Of a stretch of 64,000 nucleotides of DNA, positions 7,474-34,091 are shown one piece after another; the first letter of the stretch is position 1, and the number at the start of each line of letters is the position of its first letter. The notes beneath the pieces were generated by a model, which did no database searches, was not told where the DNA came from, and worked only from the letters and a program-made list of their open reading frames with translations. This DNA comes from Escherichia coli (GTDB lineage Bacteria > Pseudomonadota > Gammaproteobacteria > Enterobacterales > Enterobacteriaceae): the NCBI RefSeq assembly GCF_048403405.1, contig NZ_CP183129.1; one strand, written 5' to 3'. Position numbers and translations under genes: made by a program.

Positions 7474-8013
7474 ATGGAGTTGCTTATGTCAAATGTGAGC
7501 GGGATCGGTGATGCTTATTACTGGAGTGTTTTTAAAATCGCCGAGGCCTTTGGGCTTCACCGGGACACAGTAAAAAAACGGCTCCTCGCGGCCAACACTC
7601 CTGTGGCTGCGACTGTCAGGGGGAACCCCGTTTACGCCCTGCAGCATGTCGGGCCCGCCCTGTTTAGTGTGAAGCATGAGGCAGCAGACTCTGTTCATGA
7701 TCCATCCCGTATGGAGCCGAAAGAGAGAAAGGACTGGTACCAGTCTGAAAATGAAAGGATCAAGCTGGAAAAGGAGCAGCGAAAACTCATCCCAGTTGAT
7801 GAAGTAGTCATCGTCTATTCGTCCATGAGAAAGGCTGTCGTCCAGGTTCTGGAGACAATTCCGGATGTTCTTGAACGCGATTGCGCTCTGACTCCTCAGG
7901 CCGTCGGCGTTGTACAGCAGGCCATTGATGACCTGCGATACACTCTTCAGGAAAAATCCTACGAGGCTTGTGCTGCTGAATTAATTCCTGATGAGGAAGG
8001 AGAGAGTCTCTAG
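7474..8013 (+). CDS. terminase small subunit
   Basis: 179 aa; N-terminal helix-turn-helix (SVFKIAEAFGLHRDTVKKRL); immediately upstream of the large subunit and downstream of cos. Confidence 0.7.
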   Translation: MELLMSNVSGIGDAYYWSVFKIAEAFGLHRDTVKKRLLAANTPVAATVRGNPVYALQHVGPALFSVKHEAADSVHDPSRMEPKERKDWYQSENERIKLEKEQRKLIPVDEVVIVYSSMRKAVVQVLETIPDVLERDCALTPQAVGVVQQAIDDLRYTLQEKSYEACAAELIPDEEGESL

Positions 8014-8021
8014 GAGGAATA

Positions 8022-10121
8022 ATGGGTTTTTCATCAGCCCGAAATTTGGGAAGGGACATATCGGCAGGATTTTCCCCACCACGTCGCATGCCGATTTCGG
8101 AGGCTGTTAAAAAATTCATGCGTGTTCCCAAGGGGGCTGGTAACTCGGTGCCATGGGATCCTGAACTGACACCCTACATCATTGAGCCCATGAACTGCCT
8201 GGCATCGCGTGAATACGATGCGGTGATTTTTGTTGGTCCTGCGCGAACAGGGAAGACCATTGGTCTGATCGATGGATGGATTGTCTATACCATCGTTTGC
8301 GATCCTTCGGACATGCTCGTTGTGCAGATGACCGAAGATAAGGCCCGCGAGCATTCTAAAAAGCGCCTCGACAGAACGTTCAGAAGCAGTGCGGCGGTAA
8401 AGAAAAGAATGAGTCCACGTCGTAACGACAATAATGTCCATGATAAGACGTTCAGGGATGGCTCGTTCCTTAAAATTGGTTGGCCCTCGGTCAACATTAT
8501 GTCGTCGTCGGATTACCGGTTTGTCGCCTTAACCGATTACGACCGTTTTCCGGAGAATATCGACAGCGAGGGTGATGGTTTCTCCCTGGCCTCAAAACGT
8601 ACCACCACATTTATGTCCGCCGGGATGACTCTGGTGGAGAGCTCGCCGGGACGTGACATCTGCGACAGCAAATGGCGACGTAAGTCGCCTCATGAAGCGC
8701 CACCGACGACTGGTATTCTTTCCCTTTACAATCGTGGTGACCGCCGCCGCTGGTACTGGCCATGTCCGCACTGCGGTGAATATTTTCAGCCAGCTATGGA
8801 TGCCATGACCGGCTACCGTAATGAACCGGATCCCTTTAAAGCCAGTGAGGCGGCGTATCTACTTTGCCCGCACTGCAGCGGCATTATCACTGCGGAGAAA
8901 AAGCGTGAGCTCAATAGTGCAGGAGTCTGGTTGCGTGAAGGTCAGGTCATTGATCGTAACGGCAACGTTTCCGGTGAACCGCGCCGCTCCCGTATCGCCA
9001 GTTTCTGGATGGAAGGGCCAGCTGCTGCGTATCAGACCTGGGCGCAACTGGTTTACAAATTACTGACTGCAGAACAGGAGTATGAAGCGACAGGAAGCGA
9101 AGAAACACTCAGGGCGGTTATCAACACCGACTGGGGATTGCCTTATCTTCCTCGTGCCAGCATGGAGCAACGAAAAAGTGAACTGCTTGAGCAGCGGGCA
9201 GAGCCAGTTCCTTCCTGCAGTGTGCCGGATGGCGTTAATTTCCTTGTGGCGACAGTGGATGTGCAGGCGGGACGTCATCGCCGTTTTGTGGTTCAGGTAA
9301 CTGGCTATGGCAGTCGTGGCGAACGCTGGATTATTGATCGTTACAATATCACGCAGTCATTGCGCAGTGACTGCGACGGGGAGAGCCAGCGAATTGATCC
9401 GGCCAGCTATCCGGAAGACTGGGATGTCCTGCTGACGGATGTTTTTCATAAAAGCTGGCCGCTGGCCTCCGATCCTTCTCAACAAATGCGACTGATGGCA
9501 ATGGCGGTGGACTCCGGCGGTGAAGACGGGGTCACTGATAATGCCTATAAATTCTGGCGTCGTTGCCGTCGTGATGGCCTTGGTAAACGTATTTACCTGT
9601 TTAAGGGCGACAGCATCCGGCGCGCAAAACTGATCACCCGTACATTCCCTGATAACACCGGACGAACGGGCCGACGGGCGCAGGCCGCAGGTGATGTGCC
9701 GCTCTGGCTTCTTCAGACGGATGCACTGAAAGACCGGGTGAATAACGCGTTATGGCGTGACTCGCCAGGTCCCGGCTATGTGCATTTCCCTGACTGGCTG
9801 GGGAGCTGGTTTTACGACGAACTGACGTATGAAGAGCGGAGCAGTGACGGGAAATGGAGTAAGCCGGGTCGCGGTGCCAACGAAGCTTTTGACCTGATGG
9901 TGTATGCCGAGGCTCTGGTCATTCTGCATGGATACGAAAAGATCCGCTGGCCGGATGCACCGGAGTGGGCGAGCCGGGAAACCTGGCTGGAGTGTGTCCC
10001 GGACAGTACCGAACCGTCACCCTCACCGGAACCGGTATCCACGCCTGTTAAAAAACAAAAACGGAAGAAAACAGTAACTGACGATGTTAACCCCTGGCTG
10101 ACTTCCGGAGGATGGTTATGA
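8022..10121 (+). CDS. terminase large subunit (lambda GpA family)
   Basis: 699 aa; Walker A motif GPARTGKT; C-terminal nuclease-like region; gene order. Confidence 0.9.
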   Translation: MGFSSARNLGRDISAGFSPPRRMPISEAVKKFMRVPKGAGNSVPWDPELTPYIIEPMNCLASREYDAVIFVGPARTGKTIGLIDGWIVYTIVCDPSDMLVVQMTEDKAREHSKKRLDRTFRSSAAVKKRMSPRRNDNNVHDKTFRDGSFLKIGWPSVNIMSSSDYRFVALTDYDRFPENIDSEGDGFSLASKRTTTFMSAGMTLVESSPGRDICDSKWRRKSPHEAPPTTGILSLYNRGDRRRWYWPCPHCGEYFQPAMDAMTGYRNEPDPFKASEAAYLLCPHCSGIITAEKKRELNSAGVWLREGQVIDRNGNVSGEPRRSRIASFWMEGPAAAYQTWAQLVYKLLTAEQEYEATGSEETLRAVINTDWGLPYLPRASMEQRKSELLEQRAEPVPSCSVPDGVNFLVATVDVQAGRHRRFVVQVTGYGSRGERWIIDRYNITQSLRSDCDGESQRIDPASYPEDWDVLLTDVFHKSWPLASDPSQQMRLMAMAVDSGGEDGVTDNAYKFWRRCRRDGLGKRIYLFKGDSIRRAKLITRTFPDNTGRTGRRAQAAGDVPLWLLQTDALKDRVNNALWRDSPGPGYVHFPDWLGSWFYDELTYEERSSDGKWSKPGRGANEAFDLMVYAEALVILHGYEKIRWPDAPEWASRETWLECVPDSTEPSPSPEPVSTPVKKQKRKKTVTDDVNPWLTSGGWL

Positions 10122-22398: not shown

Positions 22399-25850
<3,452 letters not shown>

Positions 25851-25917: not shown

Positions 25918-26517
25918 ATGCGTAAAGTTTGTGCAGCCATTTTGTCCGCAGCCATCTGTCTGTCCGTATCCGGTGCGCCTGCATGGGCATCTGAACATCA
26001 GTCCACGCTGAGCGCGGGGTATCTTCATGCCTCGACGAACGTTCCCGGCAGCGATGATCTTAACGGGATTAACGTGAAATACCGTTATGAGTTTACGGAC
26101 ACACTGGGGCTGGTGACGTCATTCAGCTATGCAGGAGACAAGAATCGCCAGCTTACCCGTTACAGCAATACCCGCTGGCATGAAGATTCCGTGCGTAACC
26201 GCTGGTTCAGCGTGATGGTGGGGCCGTCTGTGCGCGTGAATGAATGGTTCAGCGCGTATGCGATGGCGGGTATGGCTTACAGCCGTGTGTCGACCTTCTC
26301 CGGGGATTATCTCCGCGTAACTGACAACAAGGGGAAAACGCACGATGTGCTGACCGGAAGTGATGACGGTCGCCACAGCAACACGTCTCTGGCGTGGGGG
26401 GCTGGCGTGCAGTTTAACCCGACCGAATCCGTGGCCATTGACCTTGCTTATGAAGGTTCCGGCAGTGGTGACTGGCGCACTGACGGTTTCATCGTGGGTG
26501 TCGGTTATAAATTCTGA
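25918..26517 (+). CDS. lom: Lom/Ail-family outer membrane protein
   Basis: 199 aa; signal peptide; beta-barrel C-terminal ...GVGYKF; own terminator; classic position after J. Confidence 0.85.
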
Positions 26518-26542
26518 TTAGCCAGGTAACACAGTGTTATGA

Positions 26543-26572
26543 CAGCCCGCCGGTTCAGGCGGGCTTTTTTGT
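26543..26572 (+). terminator. rho-independent terminator after lom
   Basis: cagcccgccggttcaggcgggctttttt. Confidence 0.6.
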
Positions 26573-26581
26573 GGAGTGGAT

Positions 26582-28987
26582 ATGGCAGCAGTAAAAATCT
26601 CAGGTGTGCTGAAAGATGGTGCGGGAAAACCAATACAGAACTGCACTATTCAACTGAAGGCAAAGCGTAACAGCACCACGGTACTGGTGAACACGGTGGC
26701 CTCTGAAAATCCGGATGAAGCCGGGCGTTACAGCATGGATGTTGAGTATGGCCAGTACAGCGTTATCCTGCTTGTTGAAGGTTTTCCGCCTTCACATGCC
26801 GGAACCATTACCGTCTATGAAGGTTCCAGACCAGGTACGCTGAATGATTTTCTCGGTGCCATGACGGAAGATGATGTCATGCCGGAGGCATTGCGTCGTT
26901 TTGAGGAAATGGTGGAAGAAGCGGCACGCAACGCCGAAGCCGCCTCTCAGAGCGCAGCGGCGGCAAAGAAATCCGAAACTGCAGCGGCATCATCAAAGAA
27001 CGCGGCGAAAACCTCAGAAACGAATGCAGCTAATAGTGCACAGGCGGCAGCGACCTCAAAGACTGCATCGGCAAACTCCGCGACAGCAGCCAAAAAATCA
27101 GAAACCAACGCGAAAAATAGCGAGACAGCCGCAAAGACGAGCGAAACCAACGCAAAGTCCAGCCAGACGGCAGCGAAAACCAGCGAAACGAATGCCAAAG
27201 CCAGTGAAACTGCGGCAAAAAACAGCCAGGTTGCAGCAGCCCAAAGCGAGAGCGCGGCAGCCGGTTCTGCGACTTCAGCAGCTGGATCAGCAACTGCTGC
27301 GGCTAACAGCCAGAAAGCTGCGAAGACGAGTGAAACTAACGCAAAGTCCAGCCAGACGGCAGCGAAGACCAGCGAAACGAATGCCAAAGCCAGTGAAACT
27401 GCGGCGAAAAGCAGTCAGGATGCAGCGGCCCAAAGCGAGAGTGCCGCAGCCAGTTCTGCAAGCGCGGCGGCTGCTTCTGCCACTGCATCAGCTAACAGTC
27501 AAAAAGCAGCAAAAACCAGTGAAACCAACGCAAAGGCGAGCGAGACTGCGGCGGCGAACTCGGCGCAAGCATCGGCAGCAAGCCAGACAGCAGCTAAAGC
27601 AAGTGAAGACGCAGCCAGAGAGTATGCAAGCCAGGCAGCGGAGCCGTATAAACAAGTTTTGCAGCCGTTGCCCGATGTGTGGATACCGTTTAATGATTCA
27701 CTGGATATGATTACGGGCTTTTCGCCATCATATAAAAAAATTGTTATTGGCGACGATGAAATAACAATGCCTGGCGACAAGATTGTAAAGTTTAAACGCG
27801 CATCGAAAGCAACTTACATTAATAAATCTGGTGTGCTGACAGAGGCTGCCATTGACGAGCCACGATTTGAACGTGATGGCCTGCTTATTGAGGGGCAAAG
27901 AACTAACCTGCTAATCAATTCAACAAATCCGACTAAATGGAACAAGTCGTCAAATATGATCTTAAGTGCATCAGGTGTAGATGATTTCGGATTCCAGTAC
28001 GCAAAATTTACATTAAAACCAGAAATGGTAGGGCAAATTTCAGCGATTAACATAGTAACCGTTTCCGGCAGTAAAGGTTTTGATGTAACAGGCGGAGAAA
28101 AGTATGTAACCATATCATGCAGGGTGCAAAGTGGCACTCCAAATTTAAGATGCCGATTACGATTTGAAAACTATGATGGTTCTACCTACACATTCTTAGG
28201 TGACGCTTACTTAAATACGACAGATTTATCTATTGATAAGACGGGTGGTGCCGCTAATCGCATTACTGCAAGGGCTGTTAAAGATGAAGCAAGCAAATGG
28301 ATCTTTTTTGAGGCGACAATTAAGGCACTTGATACAGAAAATATGATAGGTGGAATGGTTCAGTATGCCCCGGCAAAAGGAGTGGGCACTGGCGCGGATG
28401 ATTATATTTATATTGCGACCCCTCAAGTTGAAGGTGGGGCGTGCGCTTCATCGTTTATTATAACAGGCGCATCCCCTGTAACACGCGCCAGCGATATTGT
28501 AACGGTCCCCATTTCTCTAAATTGGTGCAATCCCGCTATTAGTTCATTAGCAGAAGTTAATACCAATTGGGATGAATCGCCAAACAAAGAAGGTAGCGCA
28601 CGTATTCTTAATATTTCCACTACGGGAGATACAACTGAAATTGCAGATGAAAGTTATATGTATTTGGGGTATACATCTTTGGGAGCACGCGCAATCATTA
28701 CAAATGGTAAAGGCACTAAAATAGAATATAAAAGCGTTATAGAACGACCAGAGAGAAAAAGCATTATCGGCTTTAGATTCACAGAAAGTCGAGAATTGTG
28801 TGTTGTGGTTAACGGTAATATTGGTGCTAAGGTAGTTTCTCCTTATAAAAAACACAAATATACAGGAGGCTTCATTAATATTGGTGGTCAATCATCATCC
28901 GGCAACCGTCACCTATTTGGACACGTTCGAAATCTGCGTATTTGGCACAAGGCATTGACTGATGCTCAGATGGGGGAGTCAATCTAA
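26582..28987 (+). CDS. stf: side tail fibre protein Stf with a replaced, low-GC C-terminal receptor-binding module
   Basis: N-terminus MAAVKISGVLKDGAGKPIQNCTIQLKAKRNSTT... matches recalled lambda Stf; Ala/Ser/Thr-rich repeats; C-terminal ~440 aa of lower GC with a possible lectin-like motif. Confidence 0.85.
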   Translation: MAAVKISGVLKDGAGKPIQNCTIQLKAKRNSTTVLVNTVASENPDEAGRYSMDVEYGQYSVILLVEGFPPSHAGTITVYEGSRPGTLNDFLGAMTEDDVMPEALRRFEEMVEEAARNAEAASQSAAAAKKSETAAASSKNAAKTSETNAANSAQAAATSKTASANSATAAKKSETNAKNSETAAKTSETNAKSSQTAAKTSETNAKASETAAKNSQVAAAQSESAAAGSATSAAGSATAAANSQKAAKTSETNAKSSQTAAKTSETNAKASETAAKSSQDAAAQSESAAASSASAAAASATASANSQKAAKTSETNAKASETAAANSAQASAASQTAAKASEDAAREYASQAAEPYKQVLQPLPDVWIPFNDSLDMITGFSPSYKKIVIGDDEITMPGDKIVKFKRASKATYINKSGVLTEAAIDEPRFERDGLLIEGQRTNLLINSTNPTKWNKSSNMILSASGVDDFGFQYAKFTLKPEMVGQISAINIVTVSGSKGFDVTGGEKYVTISCRVQSGTPNLRCRLRFENYDGSTYTFLGDAYLNTTDLSIDKTGGAANRITARAVKDEASKWIFFEATIKALDTENMIGGMVQYAPAKGVGTGADDYIYIATPQVEGGACASSFIITGASPVTRASDIVTVPISLNWCNPAISSLAEVNTNWDESPNKEGSARILNISTTGDTTEIADESYMYLGYTSLGARAIITNGKGTKIEYKSVIERPERKSIIGFRFTESRELCVVVNGNIGAKVVSPYKKHKYTGGFINIGGQSSSGNRHLFGHVRNLRIWHKALTDAQMGESI
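27100..27560. repeat. about 2.4 tandem copies of a 189-bp (63-codon) in-frame repeat inside stf
   Basis: cgcaaagtccagccagacggcagcgaa(a/g)accagcgaaacgaatgccaaagccagtgaaactgcggc recurs at 27151 and 27340. Confidence 0.7.
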
Positions 28988-29268
28988 TGAAAGATTTAAC
29001 ACTCAAATTTGCCGACAGGGCCGACTTTTCGGCCTTTATGGGAAGTATTGGCTATTATAATGACGAGTCGATGCAGGATGATATTCTGATTGATGTGATA
29101 GGTAACGTGTACAAAGAAACCGGAGAGCTGACTGAAGATGGCGAACCGGTATGTGTTAAGGAAGATGGATATTTTGTAAACGTGCGCATCATTAAGGATA
29201 CGCAAATATCGTCATTATTCGATGAATACGTGGTTGCTGTTGAGCATCAACTTCGTGGCTGGATGTGA
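28987..29268 (+). CDS. ORF-A: small acidic protein (93 aa), function unknown
   Basis: ATG overlaps the stf stop (TAATG); about 19 Asp/Glu versus 8 Lys/Arg; no family recognised. Confidence 0.5.
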   Translation: MKDLTLKFADRADFSAFMGSIGYYNDESMQDDILIDVIGNVYKETGELTEDGEPVCVKEDGYFVNVRIIKDTQISSLFDEYVVAVEHQLRGWM

Positions 29269-29277
29269 GGAAGAAAA

Positions 29278-30318
29278 ATGGCTACATCGACAGTAATTCC
29301 TGATGACATCAAAACGCTAAAATCCGACGTTAGCAAATTAAAAAACGATCAAGGAAGCTACGCAACAAAATTATATGTAGACAGCAAAGATGAAATCGTT
29401 GGTGACTGGTCTGCTTCATGGTATCAGCAGGTATTGCCAACTAGCGGAGCTATATTTGGGAGAAAACTCCGCTCAACTCACAGGACGGCAGGTGTTGAGG
29501 ATGCGTATTGCGAACTATACCTCAAAAAATGGATAGACAGTCCAGGTAACGCAATGGCGCGCCTTAACCTGAACGATAACGGGACAAACATTTGCTGGGA
29601 CTTTACCAACCTTTATGGCGGTACGATGATTTTTCCCGGTGACAGCGGATACCTCAAAATGGGTAACTGCCTTATGTCATACAGCAAGCGTGGAAGTAAC
29701 GCGCTTATTAAATTTGATTACACCGACACATTACAGATCAAATATGCCAATCATGGGTCAACCATGACATTAAACACACAGGGAACCGCTTATGCTGGTG
29801 TTACTGCTCAATTGTGGGGCAACTCCAGCCGTCCTGTTGTTTATGAAGTCGGTGTTGATGGTGGCGCTTATATGTTCTATGCGCAAAAAAATACCGATAA
29901 CACCTATATGTTAAGCGTTAATGGTGCATGTCATGCCACCGCATTTAACCAGCATTCCGACCGGGATCTGAAAGACAACATTCAGGTGATCGATAATGCA
30001 ACCGACCGCATCCGTAAAATGAACGGCTATACATACACGCTTAAAGAAAACGGTATGCCCTATGCTGGTGTCATTGCACAGGAAGCTCTGGAAGCAATCC
30101 CAGAAGTTGTAGGTTCCGCAATGAAATATCAGGACGGCGCAAGCGGATCGGAAGGTGAAGAAGGTGAACGTTATTACACAGTAGATTATTCTGGTGTTAC
30201 TGGCTTGCTTGTTCAGGTAGCCAGAGAGTCAGACGACAGAATAACAGCACTGGAAGAAGAAAACGCAGAATTAAGACAAAGATTATCTGCAATTGAGGCG
30301 GCGCTTGCGTCTAAATAA
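29278..30318 (+). CDS. ORF-B: fibre/tailspike-like protein (346 aa) with C-terminal intramolecular-chaperone (peptidase S74-like) domain
   Basis: RBS GGAAG; C-terminal SDRDLKDNIQ...YTYTLKENGMPYAGVIAQEALEAIPEVV...coiled-coil ITALEEENAELRQRLSAIEAAL, the pattern of autoproteolytic fibre chaperone domains; hairpin aggggccgagcgcccc after the stop. Confidence 0.6.
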   Translation: MATSTVIPDDIKTLKSDVSKLKNDQGSYATKLYVDSKDEIVGDWSASWYQQVLPTSGAIFGRKLRSTHRTAGVEDAYCELYLKKWIDSPGNAMARLNLNDNGTNICWDFTNLYGGTMIFPGDSGYLKMGNCLMSYSKRGSNALIKFDYTDTLQIKYANHGSTMTLNTQGTAYAGVTAQLWGNSSRPVVYEVGVDGGAYMFYAQKNTDNTYMLSVNGACHATAFNQHSDRDLKDNIQVIDNATDRIRKMNGYTYTLKENGMPYAGVIAQEALEAIPEVVGSAMKYQDGASGSEGEEGERYYTVDYSGVTGLLVQVARESDDRITALEEENAELRQRLSAIEAALASK

Positions 30319-30360
30319 TATCAAGGGGCCGAGCGCCCCGTTTTATTGGGTAGGATGAAA

Positions 30361-30654
30361 ATGGATATAACACCTTTCCTTCATGCGCTTTGTGCTGTGG
30401 CTGCGCAGCTACTGGTTGGTCTTTTTACCGGGAACTGGGCTTACGGGGCGATAGCCGGTTGTACGTTCTTCATTGCGCGTGAACACACCCAGGCGGAATA
30501 TCGCTGGATTGAAATGTTTGGGCATGGCAAGAGGATTAACATGCCGTGGTGGGGCGGTTTTGATCCGCGCGTGTGGGATGTGGCAAGCCTGATGGATTTT
30601 GCTGTGCCGGTGGTGGCGTGTCTGCTGGTCTGGCTGTTGGTTAATCGTGGGTGA
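30361..30654 (+). CDS. ORF-C: small membrane protein (97 aa; 2-3 predicted transmembrane segments)
   Basis: Hydrophobic stretches ALCAVAAQLLVGLF, GAIAGCTFFIA, VPVVACLLVWLLV; AGGA 5 nt upstream of ATG; start could also be 30346 or 30355. Confidence 0.5.
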   Translation: MDITPFLHALCAVAAQLLVGLFTGNWAYGAIAGCTFFIAREHTQAEYRWIEMFGHGKRINMPWWGGFDPRVWDVASLMDFAVPVVACLLVWLLVNRG

Positions 30655-30664
30655 AAAAAGGTGA

Positions 30665-30784
30665 GCTGTATATGCAACGGAGGAAGAAACCCCGTTGCTG
30701 GAAGCCTGGAAAAAGTATCGGGTGTTGCTGAACCGTGTTGATACGTCAACTGCACAGGATATTGAATGGCCAGCACTGCCGTAG
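30665..30784 (+). pseudogene. tfa: 3-prime remnant of tail-fibre assembly gene tfa (last ~36 codons only)
   Basis: Frame opening right after the ORF-C stop reads [39 protein letters not shown], matching the recalled lambda Tfa C-terminus; no start codon or N-terminal domain. Confidence 0.7.
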
Positions 30785-30881
30785 GGTAAAACATATAAAT
30801 TCTATAATTAGATGTATCTTTCCATTTACGGCAAGGAAGGGGGCTTGGAAGACGTAAAGCATCTCACACCGAGATTATTTT

Positions 30882-31472
30882 TTATATGTCAGGTGTCTGA
30901 AGTTTTGCTTTGGCTCTTAAAATGGTTTGCCGCGAGGTTTTGAATTCCCGGGCAATGGCACTTATACTTACACCTGACTTAATTCGTTCGAATACCACCT
31001 GTTTCTGTTCTTCATTTAACACAGGTGGTCGACCAAAACGTTTCCCTGCGCCCCGGGCTCTTACTATCCCGGAATGAGTGCGTTCAAGTAAAAGGTCTCG
31101 TTCAAATTCAGCGACTGCTGAAATTACTTGCATCATCATTTTTCCTGTTGGACTGGTCAGGTCAATGCCCCCCAATGCTAAGCAATGCACTCTGATACCT
31201 GTTTCGGTCAGTTGTTCCACTGTTTTCCTGATATCCATTGCATTACAACCAAGGCGATCCAGTTTTGTCACAATCAATTGATCACCACATTTCAGGCGAG
31301 CAAGCAACCGGTTAAAACCAGGACGCTCACTGGTTGCTGCTGAGCCGCTAATGTGTTCTTCGATTATTTGCTGAGGTTTGATTTTAAAACCTGCACTTTC
31401 GATTTCCCGGCGTTGATTTTCGGTGGTCTGATCCAGCGTTGATATCCGACAGTAAGCAAAAATTCGAGACAT
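30882..31472 (-). CDS. pinQ: serine recombinase (invertase/resolvase family), PinQ/PinR-like
   Basis: 196 aa; catalytic-region motif YCRISTLDQ; C-terminal helix-turn-helix; same position as pinQ next to tfa and ydfK in K-12 Qin. Confidence 0.75.
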
Positions 31473-31788
31473 AGTGAGACTCTATACGAAATTGGTGTTC
31501 ATATCATAATGCATCTCAGAAAATAATTTTGATTATTTTTGTGCATGTTTGTATGTACACGTTCGAAAATAAACGAATGCGTATGCAACCCCGTAATTTT
31601 GGTGAGACCCAAAATCGATTTTGTGAAAAATGGCTTTAACTCGGTTTGTTTTTCGAGTTCCGGGCGGACTCAAGGAAGAAGAATAGTGTTGCGTGTTATT
31701 TTAACCAGATTTCAAGTTGTTTGGTCGTGGAAAAGTGGAGCAAAATGTTGTTAAAGTGGAAAAATGATAAAAAAGTAAGTTTATTATA

Positions 31789-32022
31789 TTACATTTTACC
31801 ATTTAAATTTTGGTTGTCTTTAAGAACTGATATCGCTGTTTGTAATAATTCTTTGTTATCCAGCCATGACTTTTTCTTTATGTTTCCTTCAATGTAATCA
31901 AGCAATGTTCTGGTATTGATAGGTCTTCCCTGTTTTGCCACTTCCACGACAGCATCTCCCAGGATAATTCTGACTTCAGGAAGCTGCGCAGGGAACCACT
32001 TTAGGGTGTCTTTTGATTTCAT
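31789..32022 (-). CDS. ydfK: YdfK/YnaE-family cold-shock-inducible prophage protein
   Basis: 77 aa from MKSKDTLKWFPAQLPEVRIILGDAVVEVAKQGRP...; AT-rich leader upstream (higher coordinates). Confidence 0.75.
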   Translation of the reverse strand: MKSKDTLKWFPAQLPEVRIILGDAVVEVAKQGRPINTRTLLDYIEGNIKKKSWLDNKELLQTAISVLKDNQNLNGKM

Positions 32023-32807
32023 GAATATATTCCTTAAAATATTATTGATTTTCATTGCGATATTGTATGTCTGATTCAGGATATGTTGACTTATACATCG
32101 GTTTTGTCTGGGTTATTGGATATGCCAATCCCTAATTTTATTAGAGCATGACTAAAAATGCTGAATATGATAAGGAGCGAAGTGATTATCAGTATGCTGT
32201 TCATATAGCCTCGAATTAGTAATGTGTTATATATGATATAGTTGACAATTTTTATCCTGGGTGTTCTTAAAGTTCGTAGATAAACATTGTCGTTTCAGGT
32301 ATACAGGAATGCTAACAGATGGCGGCAAAAATCAGGCGGTTTATGGCGCAAGCTGAAGTGGCAACTGCAAACTATCTTATGCAGAGACTCTACACGGATT
32401 GGGTTTAAAAGTATACATAGATAACAGTTTTTATCTGAAGAAGAAAAATATCAAGGTGATATAGCCTATATGCCTTTGATGCGGAGGAATGAATGTGATG
32501 GGAGTGATGTATCTGAATAGTTGAAAAACCGCAGACACGCCTTATGCAAGAACGTGCTGCGGTTGGCTGGTAAATTTTTCGATAGTGCGAGTATTGAATG
32601 ATTTCCAGCCGTTATTGATTTTACGCGTAACTCCATGAAAAAACTACTTATCTGTTGAGGAGTTTTTTTGGGGCATATATGGGACAGAAATAGGCCCCAG
32701 ATAGACACTGAGATCGAACTTAGGATGCTTTTTAAAAAATGCAACTATCTGAAAAAACCTAGAAAACGCCAAGGAAACCACAGGATGGGAAAAAACACCT
32801 GTGAATT

Positions 32808-34091
32808 ATGGATTTCCAGTTATATTCGCTCGGCGCAGCGTTAGTGTTTCATGAAATATTTTTTCCTGAATCATCAACGGCAATGGCGTTAATTCTGGCA
32901 ATGGGAACCTACGGTGCAGGTTATGTGGCGCGTATTGTCGGAGCATTTATTTTCGGCAAAATGGGCGACAGAATCGGGCGTAAAAAAGTACTCTTTATTA
33001 CCATCACCATGATGGGGATCTGTACCACCTTAATTGGTGTGTTACCGACCTATGCACAGATTGGTGTTTTTGCACCCATCTTGCTGGTGACGCTGCGTAT
33101 TATTCAGGGATTGGGTGCAGGTGCGGAAATTTCCGGTGCCGGTACGATGCTGGCGGAATATGCGCCAAAAGGTAAGCGCGGAATTATCTCCTCATTTGTG
33201 GCTATGGGGACTAACTGCGGAACCTTGAGCGCAACGGCAATCTGGGCCTTTATGTTCTTCATTCTCAGTAAAGAGGAACTGCTTGCGTGGGGATGGCGTA
33301 TACCGTTCCTGGCGAGCGTTGTCGTGATGGTCTTTGCTATCTGGTTGCGTATGAATCTGAAAGAAAGCCCGGTCTTTGAGAAGGTTAACGACAGCAACCA
33401 ACCGACAGCAAAACCTGCACCTGCTGGTAGCATGTTCCAGAGCAAATCCTTCTGGCTGGCAACAGGGCTGCGTTTTGGTCAGGCTGGTAACTCCGGTTTA
33501 ATTCAGACTTTCCTTGCAGGCTATTTAGTGCAGACGTTATTGTTTAACAAAGCAATTCCAACAGATGCATTGATGATCAGTTCGATTCTCGGCTTTATGA
33601 CCATTCCGTTCCTTGGTTGGTTATCCGATAAAATTGGTCGCCGGATCCCGTATATTATTATGAATACCTCTGCGATTGTGCTGGCGTGGCCAATGCTTTC
33701 TATCATCGTAGATAAAAGCTATGCCCCGAGCACCATTATGGTTGCACTGATTGTGATTCATAACTGTGCGGTGCTGGGATTATTTGCTCTGGAAAACATT
33801 ACCATGGCAGAAATGTTCGGCTGTAAAAACCGCTTTACCCGGATGGCTATTTCTAAAGAAATTGGTGGTCTTATCGCTTCCGGTTTTGGTCCTATCCTGG
33901 CGGGTATTTTCTGCACCATGACGGAATCCTGGTATCCGATCGCCATTATGATCATGGCATATTCAGTGATTGGTTTAATCTCTGCGCTGAAAATGCCAGA
34001 AGTGAAAGACCGTGATTTAAGTGCACTGGAAGATGCCGCGGAAGATCAACCGCGTGTTGTAACAGCTGCGCAACCTTCAAGAAGTCTGTAA
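32808..34091 (+). CDS. ydfJ: MFS metabolite transporter YdfJ, N-terminally truncated at the prophage junction
   Basis: 427-aa ORF; MFS motif GKMGDRIGRKK at residue ~50 means the first transmembrane helix is largely missing; AT-rich prophage DNA directly upstream. Confidence 0.8.
   Translation: MDFQLYSLGAALVFHEIFFPESSTAMALILAMGTYGAGYVARIVGAFIFGKMGDRIGRKKVLFITITMMGICTTLIGVLPTYAQIGVFAPILLVTLRIIQGLGAGAEISGAGTMLAEYAPKGKRGIISSFVAMGTNCGTLSATAIWAFMFFILSKEELLAWGWRIPFLASVVVMVFAIWLRMNLKESPVFEKVNDSNQPTAKPAPAGSMFQSKSFWLATGLRFGQAGNSGLIQTFLAGYLVQTLLFNKAIPTDALMISSILGFMTIPFLGWLSDKIGRRIPYIIMNTSAIVLAWPMLSIIVDKSYAPSTIMVALIVIHNCAVLGLFALENITMAEMFGCKNRFTRMAISKEIGGLIASGFGPILAGIFCTMTESWYPIAIMIMAYSVIGLISALKMPEVKDRDLSALEDAAEDQPRVVTAAQPSRSL

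Follow-up and report, generated by a model that had tools for sequence, protein, structure and literature searches.

The subject of this analysis is an open reading frame (ORF) of 346 codons in a stretch of 64,000 nucleotides of Escherichia coli DNA (RefSeq assembly GCF_048403405.1, contig NZ_CP183129.1), referred to below as the window, whose numbering is used throughout. At the Qin site, the window contains the tail region of a lambdoid prophage, where the tail genes J, lom and stf and the gene of a 93-residue protein, here called p93, stand on the same strand; the 346-codon gene directly follows that of p93. Its product is very probably a virion fibre with a self-cleaving chaperone. Furthermore, we propose, with a probability of about 0.6, that it is a second fibre on the virion, docked non-covalently on the cassette made of p93 and the head of the side tail fibre Stf, so that a branched fibre would be formed. 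An initial annotation of this DNA had raised, among other possibilities, a second receptor-binding tip docking onto Stf, and this is the best fit to the comparative data.

The C-terminal part of the protein was examined by domain search, alignment and structure prediction. Peptidase_S74 (PF13884), the sole Pfam match of the protein, covers residues 227-278 (model positions 1-57 of 58, E value 1.5e-13), and the same residues align with the chaperone of Salmonella phage S16 gp37 (PDB 6f45, E value 1.3e-3). The domain opens with a Ser-x4-Lys dyad (Ser227 and Lys232, in S227-D-R-D-L-K232), and each of the residues S227, D228, R229, D230, L231 and K232 is at least 90% conserved in an alignment of 54 sequences. 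The motifs from which the initial annotation had derived an intramolecular chaperone of about 120 residues are all present (SDRDLKDNI at residues 227-235, YTYTLKENG at 251-259 and GVIAQEALEAIPEVV at 264-278), and the terminal coiled coil that it had also claimed was predicted by AlphaFold2 as a long C-terminal helix (residues 304-344); both assignments were upheld. S74 domains act in cis, and trimer nucleation and self-release are established for the K1F endosialidase, T5 pb1 and S16 gp37. By analogy with these proteins, a predicted cut between H226 and S227 would convert the 38.1-kDa precursor into a mature chain of 24.9 kDa and a released domain of 13.2 kDa. The AlphaFold2 monomer of the whole protein had a mean predicted local distance difference test score (pLDDT) of 65, with values of 38-59 for residues 221-310, and a Foldseek search of this model against the PDB returned nothing below an E value of 0.09 apart from weak matches to T4 gp34. 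The monomer model is uninformative on the S74 fold, since the domain is an intertwined trimer.

The reading frame is a separate short gene with its own ribosome-binding site, as had been proposed: it starts with ATG, the Shine-Dalgarno sequence GAGGAAG lies directly upstream, and 9 nucleotides separate the start from the p93 stop codon (TGA, 29266-29268). All related loci have a spacer of 9-12 nucleotides here, similar to a Shine-Dalgarno sequence. The ORF was also checked as a possible out-of-frame continuation of another gene. This is not the case, since about 511 complete E. coli genomes carry it whole, its product aligns with PHROG 4563 ("tail fiber protein") over the entire length (positions 1-346 of 346, E value about 1e-220) and relatives with no more than 40% identity still keep the first 15 residues. 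The p93 stop and the fibre start (29266-29280) are in one frame, and a read-through fusion of the two proteins was considered and rejected; other loci have TAA stops and spacers of 10 or 12 nucleotides.

The protein had been called standalone; it is not an orphan and is much more ordinary than had been implied. In the isolated phage Tritos, TRITO_21 is 99.7-100% identical to it and the gene order is that of the window (J, stf, a 93-residue ORF, the 346-residue gene, a small membrane protein and pin). Of 5,426 complete E. coli genomes, 511 contain DNA covering at least 80% of the gene; 421 records have an intact ORF with at least 99% identity, and the exact protein sequence occurs on at least 1,000 contigs, where its NCBI name is "tail fiber domain-containing protein". 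In addition, homologues are present in the fibre loci of the strictly virulent phages JenP2, AKFV33 and KarlJaspers. The family is therefore common and already labelled as tail fibre; it is experimentally uncharacterised.

A Pfam search of the N-terminus gave no domain, and the initial annotation had noted no obvious virion-attachment domain. This statement needs to be amended: the first 15 residues (MATSTVIPDDIKTLK) form a sharply conserved tag that is common to unrelated distal fibre proteins and has a constant gene context. The window protein fits the consensus M-x-T-x-T-x-I-P-x-D-I-x-x-L-K, of which M1, T5, I7, D10, I11 and L14 are invariant in an alignment of relatives 40-99% identical to it. 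Beyond the near-fixed tag and a variable number of heptads, the body of the relatives falls to 11-35% identity (11-40% for all that lies outside the tag), and the chaperone domain is conserved again.

In order to follow the tag outside this family, it was back-translated to a DNA pattern and scanned against IMG/VR, where the matches were mostly in E. coli prophages. At least 143 instances were found, encoding at least 88 unique proteins of at least four unrelated distal families: the 346-residue family with S74; a family of 221-234 residues, in which the tag and a coiled coil precede a small tip and a divergent S74 domain (residues 116-172); a family of 330-340 residues with a tip like those of T4 gp37 and Stf and without an S74 domain; and a family of 557-583 residues in the T5-like phages FFH_1, phiAPCEc03 and AKFV33. 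For the 234-residue proteins, a hint from PHROG 3299 at a long fused form was pursued and dropped; among isolated phages only stand-alone genes were seen. Among the matches listed, a p93 homologue lies 9-12 nucleotides before the tagged gene in about 135 of 135 informative loci, and is itself preceded by a fibre with a PLPDVWIPF neck and a LamG head. Lambda-like prophages, virulent JenP2 (9g-like), KarlJaspers (T1-like) and AKFV33 (T5-like) all show this context. Taken from these sequence comparisons, the results suggest that the tag has the look of an attachment element.

Stf, the primary side tail fibre, starts with the tail-attachment domain PF08400 (phage_tail_N, residues 5-134, E value 6e-67), which is absent from the 346-residue protein. 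It continues with a shaft rich in Ala, Ser and Thr, a neck (residues 364-430) and two lectin-like head domains of LamG/ConA type (about residues 437-803). Residues 437-638 match NCBIfam GTA_spike_fiber (E value 1.8e-16), the RcGTA head spike fibre (6tb9, E value 5e-5) is another match of the head, and the head model, which consists of two jelly rolls, gave a Foldseek probability of 1.0 to laminin-G, neurexin LNS, galectin and CBM40. The alignment with the fibres of phage 21, Lambda_2E9, JenP2 and KarlJaspers extends to the last residue of Stf. Since this includes fibres of phages with nothing further downstream, Stf is complete, and the initial annotation was right in giving it a full C-terminus. 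The shaft (window 26900-27660, about residues 110-360) consists of repeats of the KTSETNAK type and gives rise to long spurious ORFs in its other reading frames as well as on the complementary strand; from phage to phage, its length varies by more than 100 residues. The neck (window 27665-27865, PLPDVWIPFNDSLDMITGFSPSYKKIVIGDD...) shows 93-100% conservation when many lambdoid prophages are compared with JenP2, a 9g-like phage, and T1-like KarlJaspers also keeps it well; certain lambdoid alleles have no more than 60-75% identity there, and both flanks vary. Possible roles are those of a trimeric neck, of a recombination joint or of a part of a socket. As a socket specific for the tag the neck was rejected, being equally conserved in fibres of the phage 21 type that have no tagged gene, and hence not diagnostic.

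Homologues of p93 were found in 181 phage records from several phage families, always after a LamG-headed lateral fibre, and are labelled "hypothetical protein" in every source. No match was obtained in Pfam, in NCBIfam or, with either the single sequence or a profile, in the PDB; in the fused-construct model described below, p93 folds into an alpha/beta domain with good confidence (pLDDT 72-88). Within the cassette, p93 is a candidate for a chaperone or an adaptor. Since it occurs whether a tagged gene follows or not, it probably serves the LamG head in the first place, as chaperone or as bound accessory, and it may additionally be part of the socket.

The occurrence of the tagged gene differs between loci. 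Phage 21, Lambda_2E9, Perceval and 4A7 have stf, p93 and the membrane protein gene with a 12-nucleotide spacer in place of the fibre gene; as an add-on to the cassette, the tagged gene is thus both optional and exchangeable. The parts move separately: the Stf head of Tritos is only 47% identical to that of the window despite a near-identical 346-residue fibre, and, the other way round, one locus (L168) has the Stf head of the window (96% identity for the concatenated Stf head, p93 and tag) but a tagged gene of 234 residues. In that locus and in a second one (L246, E. coli EcPNK004, 7779-8483), flanks near-identical to those of the window enclose the 234-residue gene instead of the 346-residue one; in EcPNK004 the stf upstream of it is annotated as a truncated pseudogene.

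The N-termini of the primary fibres are not the same in the lineages that carry the tag. PF08400 is found in lambdoid phages and JenP2, KarlJaspers has yet another N-terminus, and the first 60-70 residues of AKFV33 ORF137 are close to the collar-binding end of DT57C LtfA (53% identity over a 213-residue alignment). In KarlJaspers the tag reads MATVTNIPADITALK, and the tagged gene (bas06_0035) follows a p93 homologue and encodes an S74 domain. In a comparison confined to the fibre loci, the shared parts were the LamG head and neck and p93. As the primary fibres attach by different N-termini and share these parts, the simplest reading is that the partner of the tag lies within the cassette.

Between the tag and the chaperone domain, the 346-residue protein consists of a coiled-coil stalk, a hypervariable segment and a conserved body. 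In relatives, the stalk carries from none to five additional heptads of the TLKSDVS type. Residues 36-125 are 31-49% identical between alleles that are 80-100% identical elsewhere, and in the AlphaFold2 monomer this segment is beta-rich (pLDDT 71-85). Since it is swapped as a cassette, it points to a surface under host-driven selection, which probably contacts a surface glycan or another receptor. In the body, W180, G181 and R185 are invariant, and residues 157-219 or thereabouts resemble the T4 gp34-like fibre repeat, with weak matches to 4uxe and 5nxf both by sequence and by Foldseek. From about residue 84 onwards, body and chaperone of the 346-residue family are homologous to the C-terminal end of a Stf of about 1,250 residues in other E. 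coli prophages. Similarly, residues 16-172 of the T5-like tagged protein have the same sequence as residues 528-684 of the single-chain LtfA of DT57C (PDB 8hqz chain d, E value 1.5e-94). Judged from these alignments, distal modules exist either fused to a shaft or as separate chains, and the tag is the exact piece that is added in the separate chains. Its addition when a module becomes a separate chain is as expected of a docking element.

The following scheme is proposed for the assembly of the fibre. The gene follows the tail genes J, lom, stf and p93 on the same strand and has its own Shine-Dalgarno sequence. The S74 domain of its product, by inference from K1F endosialidase, T5 pb1 and S16 gp37, would nucleate trimerisation and then cut itself off between H226 and S227, leaving a 24.9-kDa mature chain with the 15-residue tag, the coiled-coil stalk, the hypervariable beta-rich segment (36-125) and the conserved fibre body. 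In view of the comparative genomics, the tag would anchor this trimer non-covalently to the cassette of lectin-headed Stf and p93, the socket being p93, the head and neck of Stf, or both. The result would be a branched side fibre with two binding specificities. That the tag, p93 and a lectin-headed fibre constitute a universal plug and socket for interchangeable second fibres in lambda-like, T1-like, 9g-like and T5-like siphophages of E. coli is a tentative extension of this scheme, towards which we lean less than away from it.

Several observations weigh against the docking of the protein on Stf and p93. p93 is also found without any tagged gene, hence it is not solely an adaptor. The co-variation of tag and p93 (ATS versus VTK at residues 2-4) is inseparable from DNA linkage, and the tag scan matched mostly E. 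coli prophages, with counts that refer to the matches listed. Receptor-binding tips usually sit just before the chaperone domain, whereas the hypervariable part of this protein lies near the N-terminus. In the window, J carries a frameshift of 1 nucleotide, and the prophage may not produce working tails. Finally, a fused construct (Stf residues 364-803, linker, p93, linker, fibre residues 1-50) was modelled as a single chain with AlphaFold2 from 21 paired sequences. The two LamG-like domains of Stf and a folded p93 were recovered, but the tag was disordered (pLDDT 31-50), as was the Stf neck (pLDDT 25-30), with no sign of docking. This negative result is weak because the construct was monomeric and the alignment shallow. 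As a speculation from the models, the tag and the neck, both conserved and not folded in a monomer, may form a trimeric structure, possibly jointly.

Some of these observations would also suit a fibre that is independent of Stf and sits on the tail tip or tube (on J, a collar protein or similar), the place after p93 being only a convenient insertion site. The cassette has no need of the gene, which is missing from phages of the phage 21 type although these retain Stf and p93, and the fused model gave no docking. Such direct attachment is nevertheless unlikely, as the tag is near-invariant across four lineages whose primary fibres have different N-termini, for which a common socket outside the cassette is hard to see, and as the association with p93 and the LamG head holds in about 135 of 135 loci among the matches listed. 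A role as a folding chaperone acting in trans on Stf, in place of receptor binding, seems more improbable still. It would agree with the names given to bas06_0035 of KarlJaspers and several Drexlerviridae homologues ("putative lateral tail fiber chaperone" or "chaperone of endosialidase") and with the family of 221-234 residues, which would keep only about 115 mature residues. However, the S74 domains of K1F, T5 pb1 and S16 gp37 act in cis, the phage 21-type Stf does without the gene, and a beta-rich body of 226 residues with a swapped hypervariable cassette bears the signature of a host-interaction surface; moreover, the homologous bodies are distal ends of long fibres.

The initial annotation had also considered a decoy or exclusion factor, that is, a non-structural product of the lysogen that would act as decoy, receptor blocker or superinfection-exclusion factor. 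Such a product would agree with the gene being short, separate and close to the end of the prophage, with an uncharacterised small membrane protein encoded next after it. Yet the gene stands directly after the tail genes in the same-strand run, a promoter scan of the region gave no more sites than shuffled sequence, the 346-residue protein has neither signal peptide nor membrane segment, its homologues belong to fibre loci of virulent phages, and PADLOC assigned no family to the fibre, to p93 or to the membrane protein. To our knowledge, the S74 domain occurs only in trimeric fibres and spikes, which also speaks against this idea, and we consider it very improbable. Least credible of all is a dead C-terminal remnant of a longer fibre gene left by recombination. 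Body and chaperone are indeed homologous to the ends of the Stf of about 1,250 residues, and the prophage shows decay elsewhere (the frameshift in J, an orphan pin nearby and, in EcPNK004, a tfa remnant). A remnant would hardly be intact at 99% identity or more in 421 records and present in isolated phages, nor would it have its own Shine-Dalgarno sequence and a conserved N-terminus in common with unrelated proteins. On balance, a branch fibre docked on Stf and p93 was preferred.

The features of the locus are collected in the table. The 97-residue membrane protein has hydrophobic segments and ends the cassette with or without the add-on fibre, so that it marks the far boundary of the inserted gene. 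In J, the frameshift lies at 25472-25475, where the window has CCCC and E. coli EcPNK004 has CCCCC; it puts residues 1-1006 and the C-terminal receptor-binding part of about 125 residues into different frames. Either J is a real pseudogene, without a normal tail tip, or a homopolymer was misread in sequencing. On the far side of the cassette, EcPNK004 has a tfa remnant between the membrane protein gene and pinQ (window counterpart 30655-30880); this remnant and pin look like leftovers of Qin. An invertible segment driven by pin was rejected, since no credible pair of inverted repeats was found in 26000-32500 and all the fibre genes are on one strand. Beyond pin lie genes of the ydfK/ynfT type and then ydfJ (a major facilitator superfamily transporter, 32808-34091, plus strand), whose N-terminus was apparently cut off by the prophage; this truncation places the element at the Qin integration site.

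Features of the fibre locus, with positions in the 64,000-nucleotide window
Feature	Position	Strand	Basis or remarks
J	22411-25850		22411-25632 in frame plus shifted C-terminal piece
lom	25918-26517		
Primary side tail fibre Stf, 803 residues	26576..28987	+	Domain matches; alignment with five other phage fibres
p93, acidic protein of 93 residues, 10.6 kDa, isoelectric point 4.2	28987..29268	+	PHROG 1361 (unknown function), E value 1.2e-44
Shine-Dalgarno sequence GAGGAAG of the 346-residue gene	29267..29273	+	Read from sequence; overlaps p93 stop
Precursor of the probable add-on (branch) tail fibre	29278..30318	+	346 codons, ATG start, 38.1 kDa
N-terminal tag, residues 1-15 (MATSTVIPDDIKTLK), proposed docking element	29278..29322	+	Conservation, portability, gene context
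Heptad/coiled-coil stalk, residues ~11-35	29308..29382	+	Alignment; helix predicted at residues 11-24
Hypervariable cassette, residues 36-125, candidate receptor-contact region	29383..29652	+	Allele comparison
Conserved beta-rich distal body, residues 126-226, ending at the predicted cut H226/S227	29653..29955	+	
Intramolecular chaperone/Peptidase_S74 domain, residues 227-346, 13.2 kDa	29956..30315	+	Pfam, 6f45 alignment, conservation
Codon of Ser227	29956-29958	+	
Codon of Lys232	29971-29973	+	
GC-rich hairpin GGGGCCGAGCGCCCC followed by T-run, terminator-like	30325..30347	+	Consensus scan; site count no higher than in shuffled sequence
Membrane protein of 97 residues, last cassette gene	30361..30654	+	95% identical to phage 21 gp24; PHROG 1443 (unknown function)
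pin, Pin-type serine invertase	30882-31472	-	Adjoins fibre genes

Side and lateral fibres set which O-antigen or capsule types a phage penetrates. A gene that is found in about one tenth of complete E. coli genomes and adds a swappable second specificity bears on the prediction of prophage host range. If the tag and its socket are real, phage engineers could add binding modules by means of a short handle and leave the main fibre as it is, and the tag, fused to any trimeric binding module, should load it onto a phage that carries the socket. In that case many annotations would also have to be corrected, tagged fibres being now named "chaperone of endosialidase" or "LTF chaperone" and p93 "hypothetical". 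We found no account of the tag, of p93 or of the stf/p93/tagged-gene cassette in the literature on these fibres, including work on Tritos, ECOR13 side fibres, JenP2 and S74 domains in prophages.

When compared with known fibres, the 346-residue protein shares its C-terminal S74 domain, the Ser-x4-Lys dyad and the helical region with K1F endosialidase, T5 pb1 and S16 gp37. In these long proteins, the N-terminus itself attaches to the virion or to the following fibre segment, whereas the 346-residue protein would have 226 residues after the predicted processing and starts with the tag. The Drexlerviridae proteins named "putative lateral tail fiber chaperone" (bas06_0035 and relatives) have the same tag, the same position after p93 and an S74 domain; their mature part of about 115 residues (coiled coil and small tip) is unrelated to residues 36-226 of the window protein. 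The long tail fibre of T4 (gp34, gp35, gp36, gp37) is likewise made of several proteins, with the small gp35 at the joint of the proximal and distal parts. Its likeness to p93 is only a functional analogy: neither p93 nor the tag is homologous to gp35 or gp36, and Stf carries a lectin-like head of its own and, in some phages, functions with no distal part. Lambda Stf/Tfa and the invertible segments (Mu G, e14 P, and Qin with Pin/Gin) occupy the same place, after J and lom and next to pinQ, and serve the same purpose of varying the host range. There is no Tfa homologue at this locus, since p93 has no Pfam match, and, unlike in the invertible segments, the diversity of the window fibre arises from cassette exchange, with no flanking inverted repeats.

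In the T5-like phages AKFV33 (ORF137 'ltpA', ORF136 and ORF135 'ltpB'), FFH_1 and phiAPCEc03, the same cassette is found: a LamG-headed fibre, a p93 homologue of 88 residues and a distal protein that starts with MTTYTNIPQDITKLK and has a C-terminal S74 domain. The body of this distal protein is unrelated to that of the 346-residue protein and homologous to the O157-binding fibre of EP335 and to residues 528-684 of DT57C LtfA. Mass spectrometry detected ORF137 of AKFV33 in virions; the four proteins identified from gel bands did not include ORF135, and the tag and ORF136 are not mentioned in that paper (Niu et al. 2012, PMC3326045).

A close published counterpart of the proposed arrangement is the branched L-shaped LtfA/LtfB fibre of DT57C and DT571/2, which is genetically supported (Golomidova et al. 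2016, PMC4728585; Ayala et al. 2023, PMC10713586). Like the 346-residue protein, LtfB of DT57C is a second fibre with S74, encoded just downstream, without a tail-binding domain and inferred to hang on the first fibre, and it adds a second O-antigen specificity. However, its N-terminus (MSRPLMPKSGAMAPYVVV...) shows no resemblance to MATSTVIPDDIKTLK and resembles phiEco32 gp15 instead; an origin of the tag as an N-terminus of the LtfB type was rejected, for lack of homology. In addition, DT57C has no p93 gene between ltfA and ltfB, and its LtfA lacks a LamG head. The published branched fibre therefore uses a different joint. In the BASEL collection, too, lateral fibres may comprise one, two or more proteins (PMC8594841). 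Multi-protein, branched lateral fibres being already established, the advance suggested by the 346-residue protein is incremental, and what would be new is the variant of docking, in which a tagged chain joins a lectin-headed fibre and p93.

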